A stretch of 64,000 bases of DNA, from positions 448,001-512,000 of the forward strand of contig CAVUKB010000006.1 in the NCBI GenBank assembly GCA_963741955.1, given 5' to 3'. The first letter of the stretch is position 1, and each line of letters begins with the position of its first letter. This document shows positions 17,553-56,031 of the stretch, piece by piece. The notes under the pieces were generated by a model that did not search any database, was not told the origin of the DNA, and saw only the letters and a list, made by a program, of their open reading frames with translations. The position numbers and the translations under genes were made by a program. Source of the stretch: an uncultured Acidobacteriota bacterium. GTDB taxonomy: Bacteria; Acidobacteriota; Thermoanaerobaculia; Gp7-AA8.

Positions 17553-17678
17553 CGGCTCGGTTCCGCTGTCGGGCGCCTACGGGCCGATGCAAAGCTCCTG
17601 CCCTTATTGCCCGGATCCCCGCGCCACCGCGTACTGGAATGCCGGATGCAAGAAAAGCCCGCCACCGGAGGCTCAGTC

Positions 17679-18560: not shown

Positions 18561-19261
18561 CGAAAGGAACTCTGGAGCGCTACCGCTCCATGCGGAACTT
18601 CGGCGAGACCCCCGAGCCTGCGGGAAAGAAAAAGAAGCCCGCGAAGAAGTCCATCTTCGTGATCCAGAAGCATCAGGCTTCCCATCTCCATTACGACTTC
18701 CGCCTGGAGATGGAAGGCGTGCTCAAATCATGGGCCGTTCCGAAAGGGCCGTCGTACGACCCCGCGACGAAGCGTCTCGCGATGATGACCGAAGATCATC
18801 CGTACGATTACGCATCGTTCGAGGGAGTCATCCCGGAAGGAAACTACGGAGCCGGGAACGTGATCATCTGGGACCAGGGGACGTGGGAACCGCTCGAAGA
18901 GAGTGCGGACCCTGCTGCGGCCCTGGAGAAGGGAAAACTCGCGTTCCGTCTGAAGGGGAAGAAGATGTTCGGGGAGTGGGCGCTGGTGAAACTGCACGGA
19001 AGCTCGCGGAAAGGGAACGAGTGGCTTCTGATCAAGCACCGCGACGAATTCGCGAATGCCGATTTCGACGTGACGCGAGAGGCACCTCGCTCGGTCGTCT
19101 CGAAGCGTGCGGTCGACGAGGTCGGATCCGGACGTCAGTGGGAGAGCAACCGGAAGTCCGCACCGCGAAAAGCACGCACGGTGGCGGATACCTTGCGCGA
19201 GAAGAAAGCACCGTCGTCGCGCGGTGCGAAGCGGGGGGGTGGGAGGAAGCGGTCGTCGTGA
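18557..19261 (+). CDS. LigD 3'-phosphoesterase domain protein (stand-alone)
   Basis: YRSMRNFGETPEP, FVIQKHQASHLHYDFRLE, SWAVPKGPS, TEDHP, YGAGNVIIWDQG; overlaps ku stop. Confidence 0.92.
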   Translation: MTKGTLERYRSMRNFGETPEPAGKKKKPAKKSIFVIQKHQASHLHYDFRLEMEGVLKSWAVPKGPSYDPATKRLAMMTEDHPYDYASFEGVIPEGNYGAGNVIIWDQGTWEPLEESADPAAALEKGKLAFRLKGKKMFGEWALVKLHGSSRKGNEWLLIKHRDEFANADFDVTREAPRSVVSKRAVDEVGSGRQWESNRKSAPRKARTVADTLREKKAPSSRGAKRGGGRKRSS

Positions 19262-22356: not shown

Positions 22357-23062
22357 GGGCATCGCGGATCGTGGATCGAAAAGCAGCGCGGATCGTGGAT
22401 TGAGGATCGTGGATCTGAAAGACATCGATTATCGTGTATCGCGCATCGAGGATCCGAGATGCATCGACGCTCGAGGTTCCGCGGCCAGCCCCGTAGGGGC
22501 GTTTGACAATAGCCCAGGACGCAGTCCTGGGGTTCCGGTCCTGCAGCCCACACTCCCTCAGCCCCGGAGGGGCGATTGAACCATCCCATTCCTCGAGGCT
22601 CGAAGGACATCGTGGATCGTGGATTGAGGATCGCGGATCTGAAAGACATCGATTATCGCGTATCGCGCATCGAGGATCCGAGGTGCATCGACGCCCGTGG
22701 TTCGGGCACAGCCCCGTAGGGGCGTTTGACAATAGCCCGGGACGCAGTCCTGGGTTTCCGGTCCTGCAGCCCACACTCCCTCAGCCCCGGAGGGGCGATT
22801 GAACCATCCCATTCCTCGAGGCTCGAAGGACATCGTGGATCGTGGATTGAGGATCGCGGATCTGAAAGACGTCGAGGGGCTCGCATCGTGGATCAAACAG
22901 CCTCGCGCATCGAGGATCCGAGGTGCATCGACGCCCGTGGTTCGGGCACAGCCCCGTAGGGGCGTTTGACAATAGCCCGGGACGCAGTCCTGGGTTTCCG
23001 GTCCGGAAGCGCCCCGAGAGCCCCGTAGGGGCCATTGAACGATTGAACCATCCGATTCCTCG
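22357..23062. repeat. Three tandem 220-240 bp units of REP-like family A with GGATCGT heptamers
   Basis: GCCCCGTAGGGGCGTTTGACAATAGCCC(A/G)GGACGCAGTCCTGGG near 22488, 22711, 22951. Confidence 0.88.
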
Positions 23063-26121: not shown

Positions 26122-26939
26122 CGACCTGCGCCGGCGTCCTCGAGAGCGCGGACGAACGGCTCCCACACCGGCGCTTCCGGCGACCATCCCATCCGAAACA
26201 CCGGAATGCTCTCGACGAGATTCTGGATGTTCAAGAGCGTCGCCTCCCACAGCCCGCGAACCGGATACACACGCAGCGACCGGACCAGAGCCTTCACCGC
26301 GTCTCCTCGCTCGAGCCGTGACAGCGAGAACCGGGCACTCTTGTCCAGCTCGGCCACAGCCCCCATCGCCACCATCCCGCGAGGGGCATCCATCGCAGCC
26401 AGCGCGCCCCAGAAGCCGTTGGCACCGAGCACGAACGGCATCCCTCGCACCACCACTTCCTCATCGGAAATGACGTCGAAAGGGCTCGTGGAAGCAAGCG
26501 TCGTTTTTCCCGCCCCCGAGGGACCGAAGAAGGCCCAACCACGCGCCCCGTCGGACACCGCAGCTCCGTGCAGCGCGAATCCGCCGTCCAGCGGGAGCAC
26601 CGCGGTCAGAGCGGTTCTCAACGCCGCCATGAATGCGTACGTACAGCGGTGGCGGCGAAATAGACTTCCCCTCCGCTCGAATGGAAGGACCTCGGCCTGA
26701 AAGTCGTCGTGGACGACTCGCACACGATCCTCGAACCAGACGATGCGAGCCGGGGTTCCGCGCTTCGGTACGTCGGGGAATTGAAAGATCGCCTCCGGCA
26801 CGATGTCCATCCGGAATTCCGGGAGCGGCGAGACGGCGGTGGGGGTTCCGATGGTTCGGAGGTAAGTTTCTTCTTCCTGAGTAAACGGGAAGCCGCCGAG
26901 ATTTTCGATCCGAAATGGAAGTTCCGCGAGATGGATCAA
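26118..26939 (-). CDS. HPr kinase-related P-loop protein (PadeK/ScmC-like)
   Basis: LHGAAV...FFGPSGAGKTTLA...ISDEEVVVR; overlaps neighbours by 4 nt. Confidence 0.8.
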   Translation of the reverse strand: MIHLAELPFRIENLGGFPFTQEEETYLRTIGTPTAVSPLPEFRMDIVPEAIFQFPDVPKRGTPARIVWFEDRVRVVHDDFQAEVLPFERRGSLFRRHRCTYAFMAALRTALTAVLPLDGGFALHGAAVSDGARGWAFFGPSGAGKTTLASTSPFDVISDEEVVVRGMPFVLGANGFWGALAAMDAPRGMVAMGAVAELDKSARFSLSRLERGDAVKALVRSLRVYPVRGLWEATLLNIQNLVESIPVFRMGWSPEAPVWEPFVRALEDAGAGR

Positions 26940-27982
26940 GCGCTCGCGCGCTCCTTCCGGCGCCGCTCTTCGGCGACCTCCCAGGCGATCTCCGCGCGCG
27001 TGAGGAACGCCGGGTCGGGGTTCAGAGGATCCCCGGTCGCCTCGGCGGCGAGCGCGGGACAGTACGAGTAGATCGAATACGGAGGTTCCATCGTGCGCAT
27101 CCGTCCATTCGCGTCGTCTGCAACCGTCGCAGCATCGCGCCGGACCTGCGAGGTCCTCCAGAGCTCACGAAGCCGGATCTCACGTACGTTCCCCAGAGAC
27201 GTATGCCGCCACTGGATACAGGGGAAGACGTTTCCTTCGGGGTCAACGGCCATGGTGATGCGCCCCAGCCCGCAGTTGGCGGCCTTCTCCGGACGCTCGA
27301 TGAATCCGAGGGTATTCGATTCGAGTCCGATCTCGGCAACCCGCCGCATCGCGTCACGCGAGGCGGTGTAAACCAGTGGACCACGATCTCCATCGTCGCG
27401 GGGAGTGATCGTCGCATCCATCCGGTACTTCACGCCGAGGGAGGCAGCGAGGTCGAGCATCTGATCGATCTGATGCTCGTTCAGATTCGTCACGGGCGTC
27501 TTCAGAAGTACTCGCACTCCTTCATCACGAAGGCGCGTCAACCCGGAGAGCATCGCGTCGAAGGACCCCGGGAGTCCGGTCGTCCGGTCGTGGACGTCCC
27601 GCGTCGCCCCGTGCATGCTGATCTCCACAGCTGCCGGCTGCAACGCAGCGATCTCTTTCGCCGTCTCCGCGTCGACCAGACTTCCGTTCGTGAAGACCCG
27701 CAATGCGAACGCGCGTTCCCGAACCGCCTTCGCTACGGAAAGGAAGTCCGGGCTCGCCAGCGCTTCTCCTCCCGTGAGTGTGACGGTGAGGGTGCCGAGC
27801 TCGCGTAGATCGTCGAGGACGGTCATCCATTCGTCGCGCTCGAGCCGGCGGACATCGGAATGCCGCGGGTTGTAGCAGAAGACGCACCTCCAGTTGCAGC
27901 GGTACGTCAGCTCGAGAGACGCGGTGAGGGGCTGAGCGAGTGCGAATGCCCGGTCGGAGAACGAGCTGGAAGGAGTACCCAT
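26936..27982 (-). CDS. Radical SAM enzyme with SPASM/Twitch-type C-terminal domain
   Basis: ELTYRCNWRCVFCY (CxxxCxxC), LTGGEA, FTNG, ISMHG; C-term CGLGR...DPEGNVFPC...YCPALA. Confidence 0.95.
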   Translation of the reverse strand: MGTPSSSFSDRAFALAQPLTASLELTYRCNWRCVFCYNPRHSDVRRLERDEWMTVLDDLRELGTLTVTLTGGEALASPDFLSVAKAVRERAFALRVFTNGSLVDAETAKEIAALQPAAVEISMHGATRDVHDRTTGLPGSFDAMLSGLTRLRDEGVRVLLKTPVTNLNEHQIDQMLDLAASLGVKYRMDATITPRDDGDRGPLVYTASRDAMRRVAEIGLESNTLGFIERPEKAANCGLGRITMAVDPEGNVFPCIQWRHTSLGNVREIRLRELWRTSQVRRDAATVADDANGRMRTMEPPYSIYSYCPALAAEATGDPLNPDPAFLTRAEIAWEVAEERRRKERASA

Positions 27983-27989
27983 CAGGCGC

Positions 27990-28154
27990 TCAGCTGAAGG
28001 TTCCGCCGATCTGACAACCCGTATCGCCCACCGTCTTCGAGCAGCTCACTCCGACGGCGGCAGCATCGAGCTGCTGTTCCCAGGCGATGGCTGGCTTCTC
28101 GTAATCTGGCCGGTGCTCTCCCTGGCTCTCGGAGGGGGTTTCTGTTTCTTTCAA
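27990..28154 (-). CDS. Putative RiPP precursor peptide (54 aa)
   Basis: AAGGAG RBS then TTG; MKETETPSESQGEHRPDYEKPAIAWEQQLDAAAVGVSCSKTVGDTGCQIGGTFS; stop 7 nt upstream of rSAM start. Confidence 0.82.
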   Translation of the reverse strand: MKETETPSESQGEHRPDYEKPAIAWEQQLDAAAVGVSCSKTVGDTGCQIGGTFS

Positions 28155-28222
28155 CAGGTCTCCTTGTGGTGTACCTACGAGTTTACTTGAAAAACCAGCC
28201 ATGTTCCTGCGAATCAGGCCGG

Positions 28223-28765
28223 TTACGGTCGGATCTGGAATGAAGCCGGAGCCGCGCACTTCAGTGGGTCGCCGTCCACGTACGCCTCTGCCTTCCAGGT
28301 CCCGTACAACGAATGACTCATGATCAATGTTCCGGCGACCGGAAGCCGCACGCTGGTTCCGAGCTCCTTTCCTTTCGACCAGCTCACCGGTTCGAGCACG
28401 CGCACCGGCATCGGAAGCGGATAGTCTTCGAGCTTCCTCTGTTTTCCTTTCCCATTCGCGTCGTACGTGAAGGGAATCGCGGTCGACTGGTAGAGATAGC
28501 CGTGGGGAGTGAAGATCCTCACTTCCACCTGGTGGTCGCCGGAGAAGCGATTCGCCGAGCCAGGGTTGAACAAGACCCAGAGATCGATGTCCAGGATCCG
28601 GGTCGCGGAGAAGCCGGCTGCGGGCGCTCCTCCGTCCGATTGCATCGATGTGGCCACCACGGAGACACACCCGCCGTTCCCGCCGGCAGCAGCGAATGCG
28701 GGTGAAACCGCACCTGCGAAGACGACGGTCATCGCCAGAAGAGTCGATCGTATCGTTTTCATCAT
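28223..28765 (-). CDS. Secreted ~180-aa beta-rich protein (paralog of 35717-36256)
   Basis: Signal peptide; two Cys; about 22 substitutions in ~150 mature residues versus second copy (hand alignment). Confidence 0.85.
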   Translation of the reverse strand: MMKTIRSTLLAMTVVFAGAVSPAFAAAGGNGGCVSVVATSMQSDGGAPAAGFSATRILDIDLWVLFNPGSANRFSGDHQVEVRIFTPHGYLYQSTAIPFTYDANGKGKQRKLEDYPLPMPVRVLEPVSWSKGKELGTSVRLPVAGTLIMSHSLYGTWKAEAYVDGDPLKCAAPASFQIRP

Positions 28766-28778
28766 TCACTCTCCCCTG

Positions 28779-31700
28779 TCACGGCGTGACGCAGTAGACG
28801 GAGCCACCTTCGGTCCCCACGTAGATCCAGTTGTTGAGGAAGTCGATGATCGGCGCTCCGACCGAGCCGGCATCGATGGAGCGGACGGTCTGCGACGGAG
28901 AAGCCGTGTTCAGGCCGTTCAGCCTGACCAGTTTTCCGTCTCCGGTGCCGACCCATCCGTCGGTTCCGTTGGTGACGATGTTCGACGGCGAGACGAGAGA
29001 TCCTGCACCGCTGGCCGGAGTTGCCCAGTTCAGTGTCGCGGAGGGGCCGTTGTCGGTCAGACTCCAGACCCGGTTCGTCGTCGTGAAGTAGAGTCGAGTC
29101 GTCGCCCAGTCGGGATAGACGTACGTCTTGATCGGCCCGTCGCCGGTTGGATAGCTCCACAACAGTGTGCCGGTCGCTTCGCTGAGCGCGTAGACGTCGC
29201 CGTTGTTGTTTCCGACGTACAACACGCCGTTCCGGATGGTCGGTGCCGTCTCGGCATCGCCGATCGGAAGAGCCCAGGCCAGCGATGCACCGCCTGCGGT
29301 GTAATTCAGGCACCAGACTGTATTCGAGCTTCCCCCGGATTCCGCGCGACTGGTGAAAAAGAGCCTCTGGGTTGCCGCATCGACGCTCGGGATCGCGGTG
29401 ACTACGCCGATCGCGCTCGCTCCTCCGCCGTTGTCGTAGCTCCAGACGGTCGCTCCCGTTGCGGCGTTGAGCGCGTAGACCACATTCCCCGTGGAGGAGT
29501 TTCTCGTCGCCGCAAACACGAGATCCAAGCCGCCGATCGTGCTCTTGTACTGACGGAATGCGATCGCCACCGGGGCCTGCACCATGTCGCCGAGCTGCGC
29601 GCTCATCCAGAGCCGGACTCCGGTGTCTGCGTCGAAACAGTAGACGTGTCCGTCCTGCGAGGAGACGAACGTGACGCGGGTGCTGCCCGAGATCGGGAAA
29701 AGTGTGGTCGGAACGATGATCGTCCGCCCCTGGGCCGGCGCGTTCATCGCCGGCGGCTTCCACTCCTTCGGTGCGAGCTCGGGCCAGTCACCACCCGGAA
29801 CGCTGACGTTCATCGAGTGGAGGCGGCGATCGTTCGAGACGCTGTAAACCGCGGTGTAGCTCGTCGGCGGAGCGAGCGCAGTCGCGCCGGAGTTGTAGAT
29901 CCAGCGCACGTCCTGGCCCGCCGACGTATCGCGAGGTGATCCGGAAGCGAAAGTTCCGGTCGAGTAAACTCCGGGACCCCCGGTGGCGGTCGCGGTCTGG
30001 CACGAGGAGAGTGATGACTCGCAGCTCCCGGTCGCATCGACGGAGGAGACCTGGTAGGAGTAGGTCGAACCGCCGGTCACGGCAGCGTCATCATAGCTCG
30101 TTGTGGCGACGCCGCTCGTCAGGAGCGTGGCCCCGGTGCACGTCGCGCCGTCGGCGCGGTAGACGTTGTAGGTCGCGCCGGCGGGCGTGCCCGCGGTCCA
30201 CGCGAGGTGGATGGTGTTGCTCGTGGGCGTCGTAAGCGTCAGGCCCGTCGGCGCGCCGGGGGTGGTGCACGAGGTGGTGGTCACCGAGACGCACGAAGAG
30301 GCGACGGACTCGCAGTTGCCGGTGGCGGCATCGACGGCAGTGACGCGGTACCAGTAAGTCGCTCCGGTCGTCGCAGTCGTGTCCGTGTACGACGTTCCGC
30401 TCACGGGTGACGCGTTCAACTTCGTGAAGATACCCGCCGGGCACGTCTCGGTCGAACGGTAGACGTTGTAGGTCACTCCCGCACCGGAGCTGGCCCACGT
30501 CACTGTATTCGAGGTCGAGGAGAGTGGTGATGCGACCACGCTGGCGGGAATCGCCGGCGCGCTGCACGTCGCACACGTGCTGAATCTGAAGCTGCCGATT
30601 CGCGTGTTCCAGTTGAACGATCCATTCGCAGCCAGGTACTCGGTCGTGAACCAGAAAGTGCATTCGTCGGTGGGATCGACGGTGAGCGACGAATAGTCGC
30701 CCCACCGATGCAGCGTCCCGGTCTGAGAGCCTGATCCAGGAAACATCGTGGCCTCGGTCTGCAGAGTGTTCGCCGGATCCGTGGAGAGCCTCCCGGTGTA
30801 TTCGATCGACGGATTGATCGAGGCGCTCGAGATGCTGTATCCGATTGCGATGTCCCCGAACTTGTCCATCGCGATGCTTCCCATCCATCGATCCTCGGTG
30901 GTGCTCGGGTTGTACGTGCTTTGCTGGTAGAGGCTCGGTGTCCCGTTCGGGTCACGAATCTCGTACCACCGGAGCGCCGACTGCTGCGCGCCGCCACCGT
31001 CGGGATCGACGGAATGTGTCACCACCAGCGATTCATGCGTCCCGAAATTGCGATAGGAGAGATGCCACATCAACCGGTCGGCCAGAGTATCGAGGGTATT
31101 CGACGTGCCCGCCTGGGCGATGCAACTTCCTGCCGCGCCATTACACGCGATTGTGATCGGACTGACTCCTATGATCGTCGGACCGCTGATACTCGAATTT
31201 GCGGGCGTCGCAAAATCCGAATGGAACTTCCAGAGCTGTAGACAGCCGCTCGCGTCGGCCGCGCCGCAGCCCGCCGAGGTATTGTCGAATGAGACGAAAA
31301 AGTTCGGCTCCCCGGGCGGAGGTGGGGTCGTTCCGTCCCAGTCTGCAGGGAGAAGACCACCATAGGTGGTTCCGAGATTGAAGTAGATCGCCGATGCGGA
31401 AGGGTTCCCGGCGAGCATTGCGGCACGATCGTAAGCGTAGACGCCGGCGCCTTCCCAGTTCTGGAGCCTCCTGCCGGAGAATTGGTTCACCGACATGTAG
31501 TACGCGTCCCTCCAGACCCCGGACTTGCCGTAGTCGTTGAAGACATCAGTGGTCCCGGCGACGCTCGGGAACGCGTAGCGATACCAGGTTCCGGTCGGAT
31601 CCGGCGATGTGGAGACCGCGACGCACTGATAGAACGGAGCGGCCGGATACCCGCTTCCACCGACCGTGAACGCGAATTGACTCATGAACCAGCGGTCGGC

Positions 31701-32291
31701 CGACGCATCGTACATGACCAGCGGGTCACCCTGGTTCGTGCTGGCACAAAGCCCGCCACCGCCCGAGAAACCGCTCCAGATCGTGTTGCCGGGTGCAGGA
31801 TTGCCGGACGTCGGATAGACGATGCCCCCGTTCTTGTCGAAGATCAGGAAGTCGGTGTTGACCCACTGGATGTAGTGATTGGGGCCGACCTCGCCCTCGG
31901 TATCGGGTGGAGCGACGGATGGCGAGTAGCCTACGATGCCCGTGCCCACGCCTTCGAAGGTCCCGTTCAAAACCGGGGCGAACGTCGCTCCGCCGGCCGT
32001 CTGACGGACCTGGTCCGGTCCGTTGGAAATCCCGTAGGTCCGGTATGGAAGATGTTCGTTCTCCCTCTCCTGCGGAGCTTTTCTCGGTTCCGGATGCGGG
32101 ACGATGCTACGCAGCGGAGGAGAGATGTCAAACGATTCCGGCAGAACCCGGCGCGGAGTCTTGGGCGGCTGCGCTGCCAACAGAGGAAGAGCCGAGAAAG
32201 CGAAAAGGAGTACCGCTCCGTTCGTCAGCAGCGTGCGGATCGCCGTTCCGTTGGTCACGAGGGCGAAGAGTCTTTTCGTGGTGCTCATCAT
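28779..32291 (-). CDS. Large secreted protein: N-terminal propeller-like domain, Cys-containing Fn3 repeats, C-terminal PQQ-like beta-propeller
   Basis: Signal peptide; PPDTEGEVGPNHYIQWVN, DP.VMYD, RWGDYSS; YNVYRS/TYWYRV Fn3; VYCFDADTG..LW and VYALNAATG..VW repeats. Confidence 0.85.
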   Translation of the reverse strand: MMSTTKRLFALVTNGTAIRTLLTNGAVLLFAFSALPLLAAQPPKTPRRVLPESFDISPPLRSIVPHPEPRKAPQERENEHLPYRTYGISNGPDQVRQTAGGATFAPVLNGTFEGVGTGIVGYSPSVAPPDTEGEVGPNHYIQWVNTDFLIFDKNGGIVYPTSGNPAPGNTIWSGFSGGGGLCASTNQGDPLVMYDASADRWFMSQFAFTVGGSGYPAAPFYQCVAVSTSPDPTGTWYRYAFPSVAGTTDVFNDYGKSGVWRDAYYMSVNQFSGRRLQNWEGAGVYAYDRAAMLAGNPSASAIYFNLGTTYGGLLPADWDGTTPPPPGEPNFFVSFDNTSAGCGAADASGCLQLWKFHSDFATPANSSISGPTIIGVSPITIACNGAAGSCIAQAGTSNTLDTLADRLMWHLSYRNFGTHESLVVTHSVDPDGGGAQQSALRWYEIRDPNGTPSLYQQSTYNPSTTEDRWMGSIAMDKFGDIAIGYSISSASINPSIEYTGRLSTDPANTLQTEATMFPGSGSQTGTLHRWGDYSSLTVDPTDECTFWFTTEYLAANGSFNWNTRIGSFRFSTCATCSAPAIPASVVASPLSSTSNTVTWASSGAGVTYNVYRSTETCPAGIFTKLNASPVSGTSYTDTTATTGATYWYRVTAVDAATGNCESVASSCVSVTTTSCTTPGAPTGLTLTTPTSNTIHLAWTAGTPAGATYNVYRADGATCTGATLLTSGVATTSYDDAAVTGGSTYSYQVSSVDATGSCESSLSSCQTATATGGPGVYSTGTFASGSPRDTSAGQDVRWIYNSGATALAPPTSYTAVYSVSNDRRLHSMNVSVPGGDWPELAPKEWKPPAMNAPAQGRTIIVPTTLFPISGSTRVTFVSSQDGHVYCFDADTGVRLWMSAQLGDMVQAPVAIAFRQYKSTIGGLDLVFAATRNSSTGNVVYALNAATGATVWSYDNGGGASAIGVVTAIPSVDAATQRLFFTSRAESGGSSNTVWCLNYTAGGASLAWALPIGDAETAPTIRNGVLYVGNNNGDVYALSEATGTLLWSYPTGDGPIKTYVYPDWATTRLYFTTTNRVWSLTDNGPSATLNWATPASGAGSLVSPSNIVTNGTDGWVGTGDGKLVRLNGLNTASPSQTVRSIDAGSVGAPIIDFLNNWIYVGTEGGSVYCVTP

Positions 32292-32307: not shown

Positions 32308-35300
32308 TCAGTACCGGACCCAGATGGCGTAGTAGTAGGTCACACCGTTGGTGAGCCCGGTGTGGGTGTATGTGTCGACGGCGCCGAACACGACAGGACG
32401 GTTCGTCACCAGCGTCGTCGCCGAAGGATCGGCCGGCGAGCTCGGATACTGGTCGGTGCGGTAGTTGATGGTCACGGTCGTTCCACTCGATCCGGCTGGC
32501 GGGTCCCACCATTCGAGCAGGTTCTCCCCGCCGCTCGCCGTTCCGGTCGTCGTGACGGTGAATGCCTGGACGGCGAAGGGTGCCGACGTGCACCCCGCCC
32601 CGGTCGTCGCGCTCTTCTGCACCGTATTCGTCTCTTCGACGTTGTTCGATTCGTCCATCGCGCGGACGATGTAGTAATACGTGGTGTTCGCGGCGAGTGC
32701 CGAGGTATCGGAGTAGCTCGTCCCGCTCAGTCGGGTCGCGATCCGGTTCGTCGATGACGGAGTGAACCCACTCGTCGCCGAGCGGTAAACGCTGTAGCTC
32801 AACGGACCCGAACAGTTCGCGGTTCCCGCGCTCCACGAGAGGTCGATCGTGCAGGTCGACGAGACCGAACCCGTGGCGCTCGTGAGCCCCGGGAAAGTCG
32901 GAGCGGTCATGCAGTCGCCGTACGCGATCCCGGACGCGCAGGACGAGAGCGATGACTCACAACTGCCTCCCGCGTCGACTGCCGAAATCTCGTACGAATA
33001 CGTGTTCCCGCCGACGACCGTGTTGTCGGTCCACGACGTCGCGGTAATTCCCGTCGCGACGGCGCTGTAGCTGCTTCCCGGGCACGCGCCATCCGCTCGG
33101 TATACGGTGTACGTCGCCCCGGCCGGAGAGCCGGCGGTCCACGATACGGTCAGCGAGCTCGGAGCATTGGCGACGACCGTACCCACCGTCGGGACGCCCG
33201 GCGGCGTGCAGGCGGCGCACGCCACCGCGCTCGAGCACGCGGACGTCGTCGACATCGGCGTCAGGGCGGTCCCGGGACAATTGTTCTTCGCGATCACGTG
33301 GTAGTAGTAGGTGGTCCCTGCCGCGACGCTCGAATCGGTGTAACCGGTGGCGGTCAGAGCGGTCGCCACGACCACCTTACCCGTCGTGCAGGAGGCATCG
33401 GTGAACCTCTCGATGCTGTAGGTACCGTTGGTTGCGTTGGTTCCCCAGTTCGAAGGAGCGAGCCAGGAGATGTCGATCGAACCGGCGTTGCACGCGAGAA
33501 TCGGTGCGGCGATCGCTGCGGGAGCGGAACAGTTGGTGATGGTCAGTGTCGCCGCATCTTCGACCCGGGTGTCTCCACTGGTGGGGTAATAGTTGCGCGT
33601 ATCGGTCCAGATCGCGTGAGCCTGCCGGTTCGCAGCCGCGATCCCGGTGTAGTCGCCGTATTGATTTCCGTTGTAGTTCGCGTTGGTGCCCGAGTTCTCC
33701 TGCGAATAGCCGACCTTGTTCACGAAGTTCGTGCCGGCATCGACGACATTGATGTTCGGCTCGAAGGAGACGCCGCCGTCGATGGAGCGCGCGTAATACA
33801 TCTGCGAGCGCGTGTTCCCGCCGTCATTCCGCCCGTCGTACCAGCCGACGTTGAGCGTTCCGTCGCTCTGATCGACCTGACCCCACGGAAAGATCTGCGT
33901 GGCCGTACCGGTGTCGTCGTTGACCTTCACCTCGGAAGACCAGGTCGCGCCGCCGTCGGTCGAGTAATTCTCGTAGATGTTGATGTTGGAGCCCGATCCT
34001 GTTGTGGACGGGAAGTCGGGATAGACCACGTAGAGACGGTCGACGAAGATGCTGGAGGGATTGTTGTCGATGCTGATGGAGGCGAACGCGTTCACGCCAC
34101 GCTGATCCTGCATCGGCGGCTTGTTGTTCGTTCCGAAGGACGCGAGATTGTGGTTCCGGCCGACCTGGACCGCGGCGCTCCACGTGGCACCGCCATTGGT
34201 CGACTTCGAAAAGACCGTCCGGTCGCCCGAGCCCACGCCGCCGGTCTGGCTGTACTTGTTCCAGATCGCGTACACGGTTCCATCGCGGCCGATCGTCATC
34301 TGACCGCCGATGTCGCCGCTCCCGGAGAGGACCACCGTGGTCCAGCTGGAGTACGGAGGGTCCGAGTACGCGACCCGTTCGGAGTTGTTTCGATCCCAGA
34401 TAACGAAGATGCGATCGGTGTGCGAGTGCGCCTGGCCCGACGTGGTGTCGATGGCCATCATGTTCTTGTCATCGAACGTCGTGCTGTTGCTCAGCGTGTT
34501 CGCAATGATCGACAGCGCCGACCAGGTCTGGCCGTTGTCCGTCGATCGTGAGACGACCAGCGAGGAGCCCGTCGATCCGAGCGCGGTCTGGTTGATCAGC
34601 ATGTAATTCGCGTACGCGTTTCCCTGACTGTCGAACGCCACGGTCGGATCGCTTCCGAACCAGTACTGCGCGCCACCGAGGCCGCCCGTATCTGCGGCCG
34701 GCCAGGGTGCGCATTGGTAGACCCACGTCGCGCCACCGTCGCTCGAACCGAAGAGAGCCTGTGTCCCGTACGTTTTCGACGCGCCGCCGGTCGGGGACTG
34801 GCACTGCGGAGCCGGATCGCGGTAGAACGAGTTCGATCCCGCGACCATGTGCATCGGATTGTTCGGGTCGACCGCGACCTGCACTTCTCCCTGGTAGGTC
34901 GGGACACCGGTGGGGGCGAGGTCGAGATCTCCTCCGAGAGATGCCGCCTTCAACCCTGTGGCCATCGAGCTCTTCGTCTCGATCTCCCCTTCTTCTTCAC
35001 CCGCGCTCTTCCCGTGCAATTTCGCCCAGGCGATGTGCATGCAACGGACGGGAGGCGGCATCTCCATCTCGATGTGCTTCGCCACCCTCCATGCTTCGAA
35101 TTGCGCCTGAGGATCGACATCCTGGTGCTTGAGCTGATCCACCACCGCGGGCGTCACGATCTGCGCGCAACCATCATCGACGGCTGGAGGCCCCCCTGCA
35201 GCCATCGCCGCGGAGGTGCTCAGCAGGAGGAATGGGAGCGCGAGGAGAGTGCTCGACAGGAGAGAAGCAGCACGACCCGTCGAACGGATGCTCGCGCGGA

Positions 35301-35337
35301 TCCGGAAAAACCGCGAGGAAGGTGCGGTAGACGACAT
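32308..35337 (-). CDS. Large secreted BNR/Asp-box (sialidase-like) protein with Fn3 repeats
   Basis: Signal peptide; Asp-boxes SSDGGATW, STDNGQTW, STNGGATW, STDGGATW, SIDGGVSF; YGDYTGI; several Fn3-like modules. Confidence 0.85.
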   Translation of the reverse strand: MSSTAPSSRFFRIRASIRSTGRAASLLSSTLLALPFLLLSTSAAMAAGGPPAVDDGCAQIVTPAVVDQLKHQDVDPQAQFEAWRVAKHIEMEMPPPVRCMHIAWAKLHGKSAGEEEGEIETKSSMATGLKAASLGGDLDLAPTGVPTYQGEVQVAVDPNNPMHMVAGSNSFYRDPAPQCQSPTGGASKTYGTQALFGSSDGGATWVYQCAPWPAADTGGLGGAQYWFGSDPTVAFDSQGNAYANYMLINQTALGSTGSSLVVSRSTDNGQTWSALSIIANTLSNSTTFDDKNMMAIDTTSGQAHSHTDRIFVIWDRNNSERVAYSDPPYSSWTTVVLSGSGDIGGQMTIGRDGTVYAIWNKYSQTGGVGSGDRTVFSKSTNGGATWSAAVQVGRNHNLASFGTNNKPPMQDQRGVNAFASISIDNNPSSIFVDRLYVVYPDFPSTTGSGSNINIYENYSTDGGATWSSEVKVNDDTGTATQIFPWGQVDQSDGTLNVGWYDGRNDGGNTRSQMYYARSIDGGVSFEPNINVVDAGTNFVNKVGYSQENSGTNANYNGNQYGDYTGIAAANRQAHAIWTDTRNYYPTSGDTRVEDAATLTITNCSAPAAIAAPILACNAGSIDISWLAPSNWGTNATNGTYSIERFTDASCTTGKVVVATALTATGYTDSSVAAGTTYYYHVIAKNNCPGTALTPMSTTSACSSAVACAACTPPGVPTVGTVVANAPSSLTVSWTAGSPAGATYTVYRADGACPGSSYSAVATGITATSWTDNTVVGGNTYSYEISAVDAGGSCESSLSSCASGIAYGDCMTAPTFPGLTSATGSVSSTCTIDLSWSAGTANCSGPLSYSVYRSATSGFTPSSTNRIATRLSGTSYSDTSALAANTTYYYIVRAMDESNNVEETNTVQKSATTGAGCTSAPFAVQAFTVTTTGTASGGENLLEWWDPPAGSSGTTVTINYRTDQYPSSPADPSATTLVTNRPVVFGAVDTYTHTGLTNGVTYYYAIWVRY

Positions 35338-35532
35338 GACATCTCCTTGGGGTCAGAAGACCGGGCGAACCTCAGAGACTCGGGCTGGACTGGCCGCGAT
35401 GGTTGAGACGGAGGCAAATGATGACTGCGATGCTCCAGGATGTATTTTTCCATCGGCTCGCACGACTTCGCGACATGCGCATGTTGGCCTGTCTGACGGC
35501 GTGAACGAAGGTTCCGATGACTTCTCATGACT

Positions 35533-35610
35533 CGTATGGCAGCCGGACTGTCCACGAGGGACTCTCGGCTTTGCGTCCCCGCCTCGCGGCGGGTTTGCTC
35601 TTTTTCTGAG
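35533..35610 (-). ncRNA. GEMM-I (c-di-GMP-I family) riboswitch, A20 variant
   Basis: Reverse complement AAAAAGAGCAAACCCGCCGCGAGGCGGGGACGCAAAGCCGAGAGTCCCTCGTGGACAGTCCGGCTGCCAT matches GCAAACC-GNRA-GGGACGCAAAGCC...GACAG..GGCTGCC consensus. Confidence 0.9.
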
Positions 35611-35629
35611 TCGGATTGACCGCTGGCCG

Positions 35630-35658
35630 ACTTTAAACAGTTGTTACGCGAGTGTCAA
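35630..35658 (-). promoter_or_regulatory. Sigma70 promoter upstream of the riboswitch
   Basis: TTGACA-17nt-TAAAGT on minus strand ~20 nt before the aptamer. Confidence 0.75.
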
Positions 35659-35716
35659 CGAATGGTTACGGAGCCCGGAGACACCTCAGCCGGACTCGTT
35701 GTTGCTCGGATTTCGC

Positions 35717-36256
35717 TCAGGGTCGGATCTCGAAGCTCGCCGGCTCCGCACACTTCAGCGAGTCACCGTCGACGTAGGCCTCCGCGGACCACGTCCCGTA
35801 AAGCGAGTTGCTCATGATCAGCGTCCCCGCGACCGGGAGCCGCACGCTCGTTCCGAGCTCCTTCCCCTTCGCCCAGCTCACCGGCTGGAGCACGCGCACG
35901 TCCAGCGGCAGCGGGTAGCCGTCCAGCTTTCTCTGCGTCCCCTTCCCCTTCGCGTCGTACGTGAAGGGAATCGCGGTGGACTGGTAGAGAAAGCCGTGCG
36001 GAGTGAAGATCTTCAACTCGACCTGGTGATCGCCCGAGAAGCGGTTGGCCGAACCGGGGTTGAAAAGCACCCAGAGGTCGATGTCGAGAATCCGCGTCGC
36101 GGAGAAACTCTCCGCCGGCGCTCCGCCGTTCAACTGCGCCGACGTCGCGATCACCGAGACACATCCGCCGTTGCTCCCCCCGTTCTTCGCGAAGGCCGGA
36201 AGGGCCGCGAAGGCGAGGAGAATCACTGCGGCGAGAATCGTTCGTGTTCTTTTCAT
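35717..36256 (-). CDS. Secreted ~180-aa beta-rich protein (paralog of 28223-28765)
   Basis: AGGAG RBS; MKRTRTILAAVILLAFAALPAFA signal; shared FSATRILDIDLWVLFNPGSANRFSGDHQVE. Confidence 0.85.
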   Translation of the reverse strand: MKRTRTILAAVILLAFAALPAFAKNGGSNGGCVSVIATSAQLNGGAPAESFSATRILDIDLWVLFNPGSANRFSGDHQVELKIFTPHGFLYQSTAIPFTYDAKGKGTQRKLDGYPLPLDVRVLQPVSWAKGKELGTSVRLPVAGTLIMSNSLYGTWSAEAYVDGDSLKCAEPASFEIRP

Positions 36257-36278
36257 GGTCTGCTCCTCTCTCCTTCGG

Positions 36279-38858
36279 TCAGGGTGCGACCGCGAAGAAC
36301 GCTCCTTCTTCCGTCCCGACACAGACGGCTCCCTGGCGGTAATCCATGATCGGCGCTCCCACGCTGCCGGTCGACAGCGTGATCCGGGACTGCGCGGGGC
36401 TCGCGGTATCGGAACCGGCGAACTTGACCAGCTCGCCGCTGGACGAACCGACCCATGCGTCCGTCGGAGTCGAGATGATGTTCGACGGATACGCCACCGA
36501 ACCGGCTCCGGAACCGGGTGTCGACCAGAGGAGCGACACTGCGCCGGCGCCATTGTCCACGAGGGCCCACACCCGGTTCGTGGTGCAGAAGTAGAGGCGG
36601 TTCGACGACCAGTCGGGGTACACATACGTCTTCACCGGGCCATCGAACGTATCGTAGGACCACAGCGGAAACGCGGTGCCGAAGGAACCGACCGGATACG
36701 CGTAGACCTGACCACTGTTGTTGCCGACGTAAACCACTCCGTTGCGGGTCATCGGCGTAGTCTCAGCATCACCGATCGCGGCCGACCAGGTCAGATGAGG
36801 AGTGGTCGCATCGAACGAGAGCGCCCAGACCGTGTTCGAGCTCCCTCCTGCCAGCGTCCGGCTGGTGAAGATCAGGGTGCGGGACTGGACGTCGATCGCC
36901 GGCATCGCGGTGATGATCCCGATCCCCTGGCCGTTCCCCCCCTGCGCAGCGCTGTTGGTGAAGCGCCACCGTTCGGTTCCGTTCTGCGCATCGAGTGCGA
37001 CCATCGCATTCGTACCCGACGAGTTCCGCGTTCCGACGAAGAGAAGATCGTTGGAGAGAGTGCTGAATCCGTACTGCCTCATCGCATAGGTCACCGGCGC
37101 CACGATCGACGTTGCACCGGAAACCTGCGTCATCCACTGCTGTGCGCCACTGTCGGCATTGAAGCAGTAGACGCGGCCATCCTGCGTCGCAACGAAGACG
37201 ACGTTCGTCGCCGGGCCACTCGGGCCGGTGACGGGATGGAGGCTCATCGGCACGACCGGGACGCGCCCTTGGGACGGGGCATTCATCTGCGGAGGAATCC
37301 AGTTCGACCCGCGCGGCCAGTCTCCTCCGGTCGCGCCGACGTTCATTCCATGGAGGAACCGATCGTTCGAGACCGCGAAGACCGCGTTGAACACCGTCGG
37401 CGGAGTGAGCGCGGTCGCGCCGGTCTGATAGCGCCACTTCAGCTTCGTCGCCGAATCGGGAGGAATCGTCGTCACCGAGCGCTGGCTCGAGTACGACGTC
37501 CCGCTCGAGACGAACGCGCTGTACGAGTACTTCTGCGAGGTCGTCAGCCCGGGATCGCTGAAACTTCCGTACCCGGTGGCGTCCGTCGTCACCGTCGACC
37601 GATAGGCAACCGGATCAGGTGTCGCCGGAGCGGTTGCTCCGGCCGACCGGTAGATCTTGATCGTGCTCCCCGGCGTTGCAGCCCACTCGAGCTTCACCGC
37701 GCCGTTCGCCCCGGCCGCAGCGGCCTTCGACGTGGCCGTCAGGAGCCGAAGCGGCGATGGCGACGTCGTGCATGCCGACGCGCTCGTTCCGTAGGTCAGC
37801 GAAAGATCGTCGAGGTTGTATCCATATCCTTTGTCCCCGGTCTGGTCGGTCTTGAAGCGCCAGATCAGCCAGAGATTCTGTCCCTGGATCCCGTCGAGGT
37901 TCACCGTCACGTCACTGTACGTGTAGTGCGCTCCGTTCCACGCCGGACGATTCGTCGAGACGCCGTTCTGCCAGAACGCGATGCTGGTGTTGTACGGCTC
38001 GTTCTCGATGTACGGAGCACCCGGGGTCGGAGTGTCCGGCATTCCCTGATACGTGCTGACGTCGGCGTAGTTGTTGAACGGGTTCGTCGTCGTGTAGTAC
38101 AGCCGGACGCCGTCATAGACCGACTGGAAGTCGTAGGCGTGCCAGAAGCGAAGCCTGACGCTCTTCGCGCTCACCGGGACGGCGATCCCGCTCGACCCGC
38201 CGAGGATCAGCCGGTTGTCTTCCTTGGTATTGTATTTCCCGCAATTCGCGGGGCCGAAACGGAGCGCGGTCGTCCCGCTGTGGACCAGGCAGTTCGAGAG
38301 AATCAGCTCGGTGTTGACGTTCGCATCCGAGCCGCCGGGCCAGACGCTCGCGTCCCACTGGGGGTTCGTCGCCTCGAAGTTGTCGCTCGCCGCCGTCGTT
38401 AGCGTCCCGGTCGGCGTTCCGTCCCTCCACGCCGTATTCGTCTCCTCGGCCCAGCTGACCGACGACATCGCCCGCACCATGTAGTAGTACGTCACGCCCT
38501 GCGCCAGATCAGCGGTGTCGGTGTAGCTCGTTCCCGTGACGTTGAATGCGATCCGGTTGCTGACGGAAGGAGCGAATGGGTTGGTCGTGCTCCGGTAGAC
38601 GTTGTACGTGACCGTTCCGCCGCAGTTGTCCGTCCCCGGATTCCACGACGCCTGCAGCGTGCAGGTCGATCCGCCCGGATTCGTCACCAGATCGATCCCG
38701 CCGAACGTGGGCGCGGTCGTGCACTGCGCCTCGAGAGCCGCAGGAGTGATCGCCACCAGGGCGAGAAGCACCGCCGTCGCAACCCGAGCGCGCATCCCGT
38801 GCTTCCTGCCAGCGCCCGCCCTCCTGCTCACTCTTGTTCGCTCGTTGCCCTGAATCAT
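36279..38858 (-). CDS. Secreted protein with Fn3 modules, jelly-roll-like segment and C-terminal PQQ-like beta-propeller
   Basis: Signal RARVATAVLLALVAITPAALEA; LRFWHAYDFQSVYDG; C-terminal domain homologous to that of 28779-32291; start uncertain (38858 or 38795). Confidence 0.85.
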   Translation of the reverse strand: MIQGNERTRVSRRAGAGRKHGMRARVATAVLLALVAITPAALEAQCTTAPTFGGIDLVTNPGGSTCTLQASWNPGTDNCGGTVTYNVYRSTTNPFAPSVSNRIAFNVTGTSYTDTADLAQGVTYYYMVRAMSSVSWAEETNTAWRDGTPTGTLTTAASDNFEATNPQWDASVWPGGSDANVNTELILSNCLVHSGTTALRFGPANCGKYNTKEDNRLILGGSSGIAVPVSAKSVRLRFWHAYDFQSVYDGVRLYYTTTNPFNNYADVSTYQGMPDTPTPGAPYIENEPYNTSIAFWQNGVSTNRPAWNGAHYTYSDVTVNLDGIQGQNLWLIWRFKTDQTGDKGYGYNLDDLSLTYGTSASACTTSPSPLRLLTATSKAAAAGANGAVKLEWAATPGSTIKIYRSAGATAPATPDPVAYRSTVTTDATGYGSFSDPGLTTSQKYSYSAFVSSGTSYSSQRSVTTIPPDSATKLKWRYQTGATALTPPTVFNAVFAVSNDRFLHGMNVGATGGDWPRGSNWIPPQMNAPSQGRVPVVPMSLHPVTGPSGPATNVVFVATQDGRVYCFNADSGAQQWMTQVSGATSIVAPVTYAMRQYGFSTLSNDLLFVGTRNSSGTNAMVALDAQNGTERWRFTNSAAQGGNGQGIGIITAMPAIDVQSRTLIFTSRTLAGGSSNTVWALSFDATTPHLTWSAAIGDAETTPMTRNGVVYVGNNSGQVYAYPVGSFGTAFPLWSYDTFDGPVKTYVYPDWSSNRLYFCTTNRVWALVDNGAGAVSLLWSTPGSGAGSVAYPSNIISTPTDAWVGSSSGELVKFAGSDTASPAQSRITLSTGSVGAPIMDYRQGAVCVGTEEGAFFAVAP

Positions 38859-39169
38859 CTCCGCCTCACTTTTTTTCTCGCCCCACTTCGAGACCTGTAT
38901 TTTTCCGATCCCCTCCGCGACTGATGGACCAGAGGGAACGGATCGACGGTTCCGAAGGGATCGAGCGGGCCCCTCCTGTCCGTCGTGTATCTTCAAAGAG
39001 ACACGAATGGGGTGACGACTGCCTGACCCAACGCTCGCTCCGAGCCCGGGGTGCCGTCGTCACCTCGCCTTCCGCGGATCAATATAACAGCTGAGTCGCG
39101 GACTTATTCACTATCTTTCGTTAGGTTTAGCTATCCCCAAACCGCTAGGGGAGACGGAGCTAACGAAAG

Positions 39170-39689
39170 GCATCGTGGATCTGAAAAGCATCGTGGATCG
39201 TGGATCGCGGATCGTGGATCTGAAAAGCATCGCGGATCGTGGATCGTGGATCTGAAAAGCATCGAAGGTCGCCGATCGAGAACAGCCCCGTAGGGGCGTT
39301 TGACAATAGCCCAGGACGCAGTCCTGGGGTTGCTCGCCAACAGACCCCAGAGCCCCGTAGGGGCGTTTGACAATAGCCCAGGACGCAGTCCTGGGGCTGT
39401 TCGCCGGCAGATTCGTGATCGGAAAGGCTTCGCGGATCGGCGGTCCGGCTCCCGCATACAACAAAGCCGGGCGTGCGCCCGGCTCGAGATGGTTCGTACC
39501 CGATCGCCACCATCCGATCAACGATCACCCGTCAGCCTCCCATCGTCGATCAGCATTTCTCCTCGACGGATTTCAGATCCGCGATCCGCGATGCCTTTCG
39601 ATCCTCGGAAAATGGGACGATTCAATCGCCCCTACGGGGCTCTCGGAGCGCGCTCTTTCGGACAACAATCCCAGGACTCCGTCCTGGGC
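39170..39689. repeat. REP-like family A units and GGATCGT/GGATCGC heptamers
   Basis: Two direct copies near 39285 and 39352, inverted copy from ~39570 interrupted by the IS. Confidence 0.85.
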
Positions 39690-39722: not shown

Positions 39723-41135
39723 CTACGAAGTGGCGTACTGGACAGCCATTTCGGGGGTGACAGCGGATTTCGAGCGCTTCAGGTGTCGTGCGACGGGGGT
39801 CTGGAAGTCGGTGAAATTGGGGGGTTCGAAGTTGCGGATGTGGCGAATGCAGGCGGATCGCATCGCGCGAAGGTACTGGCCGGTGGGTATTCGCCACTGA
39901 TCGGGGATATCGTTGTCTCTCCACTTGGGCATCAGTTCGGGGGGCGCAGTGGAGCCGAGGCCGAAGCAATCGGCGGCAGCGAGGAGCATCATCGAGTAGA
40001 CGGCTACGGCGAAAGCGGGCAGCGAGTCGACCGATCGCCGGTTGCGCACCTGCGCCTGGCCGACACCGAAGATCTGCTTTTCGTCGCGGTGATTGACCTC
40101 GATATCCCAGCGGCGGAAGTAGGCTTGGACGAGCTCGACGAGCGAGAGTTTCAGGTCGGTACAGATCAGGAACGCCGGTTTGCGATACAGCAGGCGTGAT
40201 TTCTTGCGGAGCCGATAGCCCAGTGGCCGGATCACGACGAGCCGCAGAGGCAGTTCATAACCCGAAGTTTTCCAAAGCACGGGACCGATGGTCTTGATCG
40301 AACAGGCGTGTTCACGACCCGAGGCCCAGACTTGGACCTGTTGCCAGTCGATGGATTGGTCCACGCGGAGTTGATCGGGTGTTGGGGCCTGATCGCCATA
40401 CCAGCGCTTGCGTCCGCGAAGCGGTTGAGAGTTTGGAGGAAAGAACAGCTTCGCGTCGCCTCGGATGCGACCGATCAGGATCGTTCGTTCCGGCAAGTTC
40501 CGCAGAACCGTACGGTTGGTGTAACCGCCGTCAACCACCGGCATCAGCACGCGCTCGCTCGCTCCGAGCTGGTCAAAGTCCTTGCGAGTTTGGATCAGCA
40601 GACGCGTTGCACCGATGGAAAGATTCTGCTCTTTCTGCTGGCGACGATACTCGGCACGTTCCTGCTCGGTTGCTCCGGCCCCCGGGCGAACCGCCGGAGG
40701 CTGGTGATTGAACCGGATCGGGAAGCTGCGCGCCGGACCGGCAGACTGGCCAGTTAAAGGAACACTGATCGCAGCCTGAATGAACCGTTGGGCGCGGATC
40801 AAGTTCGTGTGGAAAGGCGGCGACATCGGATCGCGCTGATAACTCACGCCTGGGATCTTCATGCCCGTCTTGCGCAACTTCGTGTCATCCAGCGGCAGCA
40901 CCAGCGGTGCGTCGAGCGGCAAGTACGCGAGCAGGTGTCGTTCGATGACTCTGAACATCTCGCTCACATCGAACCGACCCTCCGAGAAAACGCGATAGTC
41001 TGCCGACCAGTCCTGCTGCGGATCGCGGCCTGCTTCAATCATTCCGCTTACCGTGTGTCGCCCGGTGCAGTTGAGCAGGCCGATGGCCAACCCACGAACC
41101 CGCTGAAGCACCCGAGCATCACAGGATCCATTCAA
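39723..41135 (-). CDS. DDE transposase (IS701-like); frame is open upstream to the A9 tract
   Basis: LDDTKLRKTG, VVDGGY, YFRRWDIEVNHRDEKQ motifs. Confidence 0.88.
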   Translation of the reverse strand: MNGSCDARVLQRVRGLAIGLLNCTGRHTVSGMIEAGRDPQQDWSADYRVFSEGRFDVSEMFRVIERHLLAYLPLDAPLVLPLDDTKLRKTGMKIPGVSYQRDPMSPPFHTNLIRAQRFIQAAISVPLTGQSAGPARSFPIRFNHQPPAVRPGAGATEQERAEYRRQQKEQNLSIGATRLLIQTRKDFDQLGASERVLMPVVDGGYTNRTVLRNLPERTILIGRIRGDAKLFFPPNSQPLRGRKRWYGDQAPTPDQLRVDQSIDWQQVQVWASGREHACSIKTIGPVLWKTSGYELPLRLVVIRPLGYRLRKKSRLLYRKPAFLICTDLKLSLVELVQAYFRRWDIEVNHRDEKQIFGVGQAQVRNRRSVDSLPAFAVAVYSMMLLAAADCFGLGSTAPPELMPKWRDNDIPDQWRIPTGQYLRAMRSACIRHIRNFEPPNFTDFQTPVARHLKRSKSAVTPEMAVQYATS

Positions 41136-41385: not shown

Positions 41386-41612
41386 GGTGACCTCCTTCTG
41401 GTCTAGTGATATAACTAGATACCACGGGACGAAAAAAAAGTCCAGAATTCCTGGACTTCCGCCCAACGACTCCGAGTTCCGCCAAACTCCAGTCCCAGGA
41501 CTCCGTCCTGGGCTATTGTCAGACGCCCCTACGGGGCTGCTCGCGATCCTCGATCCTCGATGCTTTTCAGATCCTCGATCCTCGATCCTCGATGCTTTTC
41601 AGATCCGCGATC

Positions 41613-51600: not shown

Positions 51601-51692
51601 TTACGCTCTCGTTCGGATGTTTGAAGTCGGAAGTCGGATGTCGAAAGTGACGCGCCAGGTTCAGACGCGAAGTGTTCGGCAGCAGCAGACAA

Positions 51693-51791
51693 TCCCCCCA
51701 GCCCGAAGGGCGGCACTTCCGTTCAGCCCCCGCCGTCAGGCGGGCGAAAGCGCGCCCCGCACAAGATTGTGTGAGCCCGAAGGGCGGCACA
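51693..51791. repeat. REP-like family C, left flank of the Y1 transposase
   Basis: CAGCCCGAAGGGCGGCACTTCCGTTCAGCCCCCGCCGTCAGGCGGG, reverse-complement relative of 52345-52392. Confidence 0.85.
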
Positions 51792-51857
51792 GGTTCTTCC
51801 CGAACCACCCGATTCCGAGGTACGATCGCGATCGGGACTTGCGCATGGCCGCTGGAA

Positions 51858-52292
51858 ATGTCGTATACATCATTGCTCATGCACGTGGTCTTCGCCACGA
51901 AGTCCCGTCACCGCTGGATCCACCCCGAGATTGAGTTTCGCCTCCACCGTTTCGTGCAGGGCATCGTACGCAACGTCGGCGCGACATGCATCGCGGTGGG
52001 AGGCTTTGACGACCATCTCCACATCATCGCCGACCTCCCCGGCAAACTCTCGGTCGCGGAATTCGCAGGAAAGGTGAAGGCAAATTCTTCGCGATTCGCG
52101 CACGACTCCCTCGACGTTTCCCGGGAGCATGGATGGCAGAAAGGCTACTCCGCGTTCTCCGTCAGCCGCTCCAATCTCGACCGGGTCGTGCATTACGTCC
52201 GCAGTCAACGGGAGCACCATCAGCGGATCGACTTCGACGCCGAATTGCGAAAACTGCTCGACGCTCATGAGATCACCTACGACGGCGGGTAA
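51858..52292 (+). CDS. tnpA: IS200/IS605-family HUH (Y1) transposase, REP-associated type
   Basis: HVVFATK, DHLH (HUH), VKANSS, WQKGYSAFSVS, catalytic Tyr in HYVRSQREHH; no tnpB. Confidence 0.9.
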   Translation: MSYTSLLMHVVFATKSRHRWIHPEIEFRLHRFVQGIVRNVGATCIAVGGFDDHLHIIADLPGKLSVAEFAGKVKANSSRFAHDSLDVSREHGWQKGYSAFSVSRSNLDRVVHYVRSQREHHQRIDFDAELRKLLDAHEITYDGG

Positions 52293-55329: not shown

Positions 55330-55338
55330 GCATTCAGG

Positions 55339-56007: not shown

Positions 56008-56031
56008 GCGTTTCTCAGATCCGTGACTTTC

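Follow-up and report, generated by a model that had tools for sequence, protein, structure and literature searches.

Riboswitches for c-AMP-GMP (GEMM-Ib) are a class defined by function, namely the selective binding of 3',3'-cGAMP over c-di-GMP. To our knowledge, the cGAMP-sensing riboswitches validated so far come from Geobacter and its close relatives. The c-di-GMP aptamer of Vibrio cholerae, Vc2, reads G19-G20-G21-C22, and its A47 is the intercalating adenine. As described in PMC5888326 and PMC6140456, G20 contacts G-alpha of c-di-GMP and C92 pairs with G-beta. In the Geobacter aptamer Gs1761 the equivalent of G20 is A14, which is described as pairing with the adenine of cGAMP (PMC6140456), and for A20 aptamers of Geobacter a 1200- to 1600-fold preference for cGAMP is reported (PMC6456294, PMC8835794). 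In what these last two papers say of selectivity, the strong form is reported for Geobacter RNAs only, and researchers on these RNAs anticipate that other bacteria have cGAMP riboswitches as well (PMC8835794).

An adenine at position 20 is also found in RNAs that bind both dinucleotides. According to the binding data reported in PMC6140456, the G20A mutant of Vc2 has constants of 53 nM for c-di-GMP and 120 nM for cGAMP, and Cbe 1-2, a natural A20 aptamer of Clostridium beijerinckii, prefers c-di-GMP (30 nM, against 463 nM for cGAMP). In all three A20 RNAs tested there, a protonated adenine pairs with G-alpha of c-di-GMP; the authors of that paper present binding of both ligands as widespread in the class and suggest that the composition of P1 contributes to selectivity. 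The cluster-3 A20 aptamer of Desulfobacca acetoxidans is reported to have gained affinity for cGAMP while losing only slightly in affinity for c-di-GMP (PMC9481103). Because Vc2 G20A, Cbe 1-2 and the Desulfobacca aptamer bind both ligands, an A20 by itself does not predict cGAMP selectivity. The sequence-only reading of the present locus had already remarked that some A20 variants are promiscuous.

The RNA described here lies in a stretch of 64,000 nucleotides from an uncultured Acidobacteriota bacterium, which we analysed as a whole and refer to as the window. It is like Vc2, and like the Rfam family RF01051, in its three-helix fold, its GNRA-type P2 loop, its GCAAAC and GACGCAAAGCC elements, its A47 and C92 columns, and its place in the 5' leader of genes for extracellular proteins. 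It is unlike them in having an A in the G20 column and a very short P3, in its irregular P1, 7-nt J1/2 and long 3' junction, and in lying ~190 nt ahead of the start codon, a distance over which no expression platform could be recognised. With GAG in J1/2, GCAAACC and GACGCAAAGCC, it presumably resembles Vc2 carrying the single change G20A.

With the Geobacter GEMM-Ib RNAs (Gs1761 and Gm0970/pilM), as these are presented in PMC6140456 and PMC6456294, the window RNA shares an A at the G20 equivalent and a C at the C92 equivalent; they are described as controlling surface or extracellular functions (PMC6140456, PMC6456294), and the window RNA heads a secreted-protein operon. The Geobacter members are reported to be selective ON switches that work through intrinsic terminators (PMC9262584, PMC6456294), whereas the window RNA is without a terminator and comes from another phylum. 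At the base of P2, pilM is described as having a U-G pair (PMC9262584), where the window RNA has a standard G-C. The closest match is to Vc2 G20A, Cbe 1-2 and the Desulfobacca acetoxidans cluster-3 aptamer, which, as reported, have a canonical GEMM-I core changed only from G20 to A. These three have measured binding constants; none is from Acidobacteriota, and their P1 and P3 differ in detail from those of the window RNA.

The aptamer and its pocket

In a cmscan search, RF01051 (c-di-GMP-I / GEMM-I) matched the minus strand at 35609..35535 with 57.1 bits, against a gathering score of 35, and an E-value of 1.6e-8 that refers to the whole 64-kb window, both strands and 4227 families. The match covers model positions 1-87 of 87 and is not truncated, which by covariance score makes the RNA a full-length GEMM-I member. 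When the 87-nt stretch 35612..35526 is folded alone, P1, P2 and P3 together form its minimum-energy structure (-35.4 kcal/mol; z = -3.37), and an equally good fold arose in 1 of 200 shuffles. P2, its GNRA-type loop, P3 and a closing P1 are thus all present, in a fold that matches the model structure (Table 1).

The sequence-only reading had proposed a GEMM-I riboswitch with a GCGA tetraloop, a short P3, an A at position 20 and, directly upstream, a near-consensus sigma70 promoter. The Infernal check against RF01051 that it suggested gave the score above, and each of these features was borne out. P3 (10 pairs, one A.C mismatch) has 7 nt where the RF01051 model has a 19-nt insert, and the GCAAAC and GACGCAAAGCC elements, conserved in the family, are both intact. 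The unusual helix is P1: by direct reading there is at most one G-C pair beside the pocket, followed by an internal loop. With so irregular a P1, selectivity could shift either way, or binding could weaken.

The alignment to RF01051 sets AAAAAG-A-GCAAACCC of the window against the consensus AAaG-G-CAAAccc. A35599 falls in an unpaired column, with the pairs G35598-C35573 and C35597-G35574 next on its 3' side, and it is this position that identifies it with the column of Vc2 G20. The other two pocket residues are kept, A47 as A35572 and C92 as C35539, so that the pocket reads A20/A47/C92 (A-A-C), with one caveat of register that comes from a second family, RF03167. Under the same caveat, the RNA has the residues of GEMM-Ib, A at the G20 equivalent and C at the C92 equivalent. 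A20 variants of this kind fall within the Rfam family RF01051 and outside the c-di-GMP-selective pocket type. We are confident that the aptamer is real and carries an A in the G20 column.

Table 1. Features of the riboswitch locus, its operon and the Acido-Lenti-1 RNAs, in coordinates of the window
Feature	Position	Strand	Basis
Sigma-70-type promoter, TTGACA-17-TAAAGT	35630..35658	-	10/12 matches
GEMM-I (c-di-GMP-I) aptamer including P1	35529..35612	-	RF01051 match and minimum-energy fold
P1, 5 bp	GACUC 35612-35608 with GAGUC 35533-35529	-	Fold
A in G20 column, contact to ligand alpha base	35599	-	RF01051 alignment, posterior '*'
P2, CCCGCC-GCGA-GGCGGG, 6 bp	35593-35588 with 35583-35578	-	RF01051 alignment and fold
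GCGA tetraloop closing P2	35587-35584	-	RF01051 alignment and fold
A in A47 column	35572	-	RF01051 and RF03167 alignments; window reads GACGCAAAGCC
Short P3	35570-35541	-	RF01051 alignment and fold
C in C92 column, Watson-Crick partner of ligand guanine (beta base)	35539	-	3' tail GCC against consensus gCC; role as described in PMC5888326, PMC6140456
Leader spacer, ~190 nt, P1 to start codon	35338..35528	-	Fold and terminator scans
Shine-Dalgarno AAGGAG, 5 nt upstream of ATG	35348-35343	-	Sequence
Gene 1: 1009 aa, secreted, signal peptide, sialidase-like BNR/Asp-box propeller, fn3 repeats	32308..35337	-	BNR, BNR_2, fn3
Gene 2: 1170 aa, N-terminal hydrophobic signal-like segment, fn3, PQQ-like beta-propeller	28779..32291	-	Domain search and sequence
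Gene 3: 180-aa secreted protein, no known family	28223..28765	-	Sequence; no Pfam match; paralogue with 76% identity at 35717-36259
Gene 4: candidate 54-aa precursor peptide, TTG 28154, AAGGAG 5 nt upstream	27990..28154	-	Sequence
Gene 5: radical-SAM/SPASM enzyme, last in operon	26936..27982	-	Radical_SAM 86 bits, SPASM 33.5 bits
Acido-Lenti-1 RNA	8710-8754, 22487-22531, 22710-22754, 22950-22994, 39284-39328, 39351-39395	-	RF01687
Acido-Lenti-1 RNA	41494-41538	+	RF01687

Position 20 among aptamers with the same core

Species-representative genomes were scanned for one exact core in which position 20 was left free (R), which yields an arbitrary sample. The core (GCAAACCC..GGGACGCAAAGCC) recurs in at least 123 aptamers in at least 121 loci; among the 123 matches listed, 117 have G at position 20 and 6 have A. 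The six A20 loci listed (L006, L029, L061, L070, L078, L088) come from Desulfuromonadales, Myxococcota, Anaerolineales, Woeseiaceae, Solirubrobacteraceae and unclassified proteobacterial MAGs. Since they span five different lineages, A20 appears to arise repeatedly outside Geobacter. Within this core subtype, the sample shows A20 to be a minority state that recurs, and no more. None of the 121 loci listed is a relative of the window locus, and the one acidobacterial locus among the matches listed, from Holophagaceae (L087), has G20.

The Desulfuromonadales aptamer, L006, has the core and the short P3 of the window RNA and is followed by a classic terminator, while three other A20 aptamers listed run straight into a ribosome-binding site and a gene for a signal-peptide protein. 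A G precedes position 20 in five of the six A20 aptamers listed and in 43 of the 117 with G20 (Fisher p 0.03, on small numbers), and G19 may therefore matter in A20 variants.

The same sample bears on the register of the pocket. RF03167 (c-di-GMP-I-GGC) shares clan and fold with the window RNA, and at permissive thresholds it scored 54.9 bits, against a cut-off of 59. Its alignment places G35600 on the invariant G and takes A35599 for a single base inserted after it. If that insertion were right, the pocket would be G-A-C and the RNA a plain c-di-GMP sensor. We rejected membership in RF03167 itself, both for the score and for the missing G in the A47 column: the window has GACGCAAAG, with A35572, where the RF03167 consensus is GACGCGAAg, with G. 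Lacking this A47-to-G change, which defines the family, the window RNA is not a GGC variant. A structural alignment with G at position 20, the outcome that the sequence-only reading had set against its own claim, is given by RF03167 only, below threshold.

Junction length is the other point to be reconciled. J1/2 is 7 nt here, counting G35606-C35538 as a single pair, and the modal length in the same-core sample is 6 nt (34 of the 53 P1 calls among the matches listed; the distribution is rough, as only 53 of the 124 aptamers yielded a P1 call, for which 3 bp or more were required). One extra base must thus sit somewhere in the junction. In five of the six A20 aptamers listed, the junction is 6 nt with A last, as expected of a plain substitution. 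Three G20 aptamers with 7-nt junctions (L080, L082, L104) still have their G directly before the G-C pair, which indicates that extra bases are fitted in further 5'. On these two grounds we accept the A20 register, which seems the most parsimonious, although not the sole possible one.

Leader, operon and flanking genes

The promoter (35658-35630), the aptamer and the ATG at 35337 follow one another on one strand, which places the aptamer in a 5' leader. TTGACA at 35658 and TAAAGT at 35630 lie directly upstream of the aptamer, and between 35000 and 36000 this was the 1 promoter-like site found, against 0.1 expected from shuffles. The predicted transcription start is at about 35623, ~10 nt before P1.

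How the leader might act on expression is less apparent from its structure. There is no minus-strand intrinsic terminator within 35000-36000, where T runs in the spacer do not exceed 3; minimum-energy and ensemble folds of the leader contain no helix joining the aptamer to the ribosome-binding site; and the leader as a whole folds no better than shuffles (z -0.70). A terminator-based ON-switch platform of the Geobacter kind, which is typical of those members and not strictly defining, was thus not found in the leader. A C-rich, G-poor tract at 35444-35375, with C/G of at least 2.0 in four 40-nt segments, hints weakly at a site where Rho could load. That the aptamer regulates the operon is what we infer purely from its position.

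Two further features of the leader region were considered and set aside. A terminator-like site on the plus strand at 35578-35593 (6 G-C pairs, then TTTGCTCTTT) was rejected because it is the reverse complement of P2 together with the A-rich junction and lies at the end of no credible plus-strand gene; in principle, the hairpin could stop antisense transcription. An ORF of 111 aa within the leader (35555..35220) has no family match and no ribosome-binding site, and its Arg-rich composition has an out-of-frame look.

The aptamer precedes five co-directional minus-strand genes, spaced 7 to about 70 nt apart and with signal peptides among their products, an operon that we end at ~26936 because the next gene is convergent. 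The translation of gene 1 contains five Asp-box motifs of a BNR propeller; its relatives number 568 at E<=1e-10, the best at 54-56% identity, and those named are mostly from Acidobacteriota MAGs. Downstream of gene 2, an ORF of 259 aa (27990..28769) is probably in the wrong frame, and we favour instead the 180-aa secreted protein followed by a short peptide. This peptide, gene 4, has an alternative start at ATG 28202, which would give 70 aa (ORF 27990-28202, minus strand). Its ribosome-binding site is strong, the peptide contains a YEKPAIAWEQQL stretch and, close to the C-terminus, two Cys, and no Pfam or NCBIfam model matched it. We take gene 4 as a putative gene whose product may be a RiPP precursor. 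Gene 5 scores under every NCBIfam cut-off, the best being the mycofactocin maturase model (116.8 against 265). The earlier description of a secreted-protein and RiPP operon is reasonable; the peptide in it is conjectural and matches no family.

A paralogous gene pair (35717-38996, minus strand) lies directly upstream of the riboswitch promoter and has no riboswitch of its own. It encodes a 905-aa beta-propeller/fn3 protein, with 46% identity over 498 aa to the 1170-aa protein of the operon, and a 180-aa secreted protein (36259..35717, minus strand) that is 76% identical to that of 28765..28223. Only 58 nt separate the stop codon of the latter gene from the -35 box, and the hairpin at 35693-35667 lacks a U run; transcription may thus continue from this gene into the riboswitch leader.

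Elsewhere in the window, seven Acido-Lenti-1 RNA motifs (RF01687; 44.6-47.1 bits, cut-off 37) are scattered in the manner of a repeat element, with three copies crowded into less than 500 nt near two tRNA genes. Together with the relatives of gene 1, these motifs make an acidobacterial host probable. Degenerate tandem repeats at 39150-39270 on the minus strand, with 'gatccacgatcc' and 'gatgcttttca' units, have two Acido-Lenti-1 copies just upstream of them and the 905-aa gene downstream. The regions 16182-19261, 39723-41135, 51672-52292 and 53680-63279 hold genes for end-joining repair (a Ku-domain fusion protein, a LigD phosphoesterase), for a DDE_5 and an IS200-like transposase, and for glycosyltransferases, methyltransferases and carbamoyltransferases, these last in a long series with the look of an exopolysaccharide cluster.

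Ligand readings and their meaning

By analogy with the A20 RNAs described above, we lean slightly towards the view that the window RNA is an A20 pocket variant able to bind both c-di-GMP and 3',3'-cGAMP. Transcription would start a few bases downstream of the TAAAGT box, and the leader would fold into the three-helix aptamer. If the solved complexes of the family are a guide, C35539 would pair with a guanine of the cyclic dinucleotide, A35572 would stack between the two ligand bases, and A35599 would contact the second base, either the adenine of cGAMP or, via N1 protonation, the guanine of c-di-GMP. Affinities for both ligands would be expected in the nanomolar to sub-micromolar range. In the cell, such an RNA would report whichever dinucleotide the organism makes: by default c-di-GMP, with an affinity lower than that of a G20 aptamer, or cGAMP in a host that has a Hypr-GGDEF or a CD-NTase. 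The irregular P1 should become more stable once a ligand is bound, and our guess is that this could affect Rho-dependent termination or the stability of the mRNA along the spacer, which is ~190 nt long and partly C-rich.

The RNA could instead be cGAMP-selective, of the GEMM-Ib type, so that cGAMP from a Hypr-GGDEF or a CD-NTase would switch the secreted-protein and peptide operon and c-di-GMP would not. This is possible, if somewhat unlikely. Two of the six A20 aptamers listed come from Desulfuromonadales and Myxococcota MAGs, lineages in which Hypr-GGDEF enzymes occur, and the first of these, L006, has the core and short P3 of the window RNA. Some Acidobacteria also encode Hypr-type GGDEFs. 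Neither GGDEF nor CD-NTase nor HD-GYP genes appeared among 64 queries covering the 64-kb window (the full set of 59 greedy ORFs plus 5 further reading frames), and in the full-text literature we found no paper that pairs a Hypr GGDEF, or a c-di-GMP-I riboswitch, with Acidobacteria. The J1/2 GAG, GCAAACC and GACGCAAAGCC, as we take them, bring the RNA near to Vc2 G20A, which binds both ligands, and the RF03167 register would put a G at the contact position. The A-A-C pocket is the same as that of Gs1761, whose A14 is described as the partner of the cGAMP adenine (PMC6140456), in keeping with the strong selectivity reported for Geobacter A20 aptamers (PMC6456294, PMC8835794) and with the expectation that other bacteria have cGAMP riboswitches (PMC8835794), but the non-Geobacter A20 aptamers for which PMC6140456 and PMC9481103 report binding data all bind both ligands. 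It was fair, then, of the sequence-only reading to call the RNA a candidate cGAMP sensor, as an A at position 20 pairs with the cGAMP adenine in Gs1761 (as described in PMC6140456), but selectivity does not follow from A20 alone. Its further suggestion that cGAMP signalling may control the operon is not yet justified, given that Vc2 G20A and Cbe 1-2 bind both ligands and that the window contains no cGAMP synthase candidate.

Alternatively, this may be an ordinary c-di-GMP riboswitch in which cGAMP has no role, either because A20 lowers affinity, so that only high c-di-GMP is sensed, or because G35600 makes the contact and A35599 is the extra base. Secreted and surface proteins are typical c-di-GMP targets, and RF01051 is the c-di-GMP-I family, whose seed tolerates A in the position-20 column. 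The RF03167 alignment, with G35600 on the invariant G and A35599 inserted, fits the second form of this explanation, as do the 7-nt J1/2, one base above the mode among the matches listed, and the G that precedes A in five of the six listed A20 aptamers, more often than it precedes G20. Yet five of these six show plain substitution in a 6-nt junction and not insertion, and the three G20 aptamers with 7-nt junctions keep G directly before the G-C pair. As for the first form, Vc2 G20A keeps its 53 nM for c-di-GMP and Cbe 1-2 prefers that ligand (as reported in PMC6140456), but an A20 pocket gained affinity for cGAMP in every case tested in PMC6140456 and PMC9481103. We consider the ordinary c-di-GMP explanation quite improbable, and our preference stays with an aptamer that may accept both ligands.

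If both ligands are bound, the window RNA would add to the cases in which specificity is not a matter of position 20 alone, and its value would be that of routine annotation only, an A20 subtype of RF01051. The fuller picture would be of an acidobacterial, cGAMP-selective and terminator-free riboswitch, acting perhaps through Rho, that links Hypr-type cGAMP signalling with a surface-protein module present in duplicate and with a peptide modified by a radical-SAM enzyme. We regard that picture as unlikely; if true, it would be the first cGAMP-selective riboswitch from outside the Desulfuromonadales and the deltaproteobacterial lineages related to them. Set before secreted BNR/beta-propeller/fn3 proteins and a peptide-modifying enzyme, an A20 aptamer from a soil-type acidobacterial genome makes a well-defined test case.
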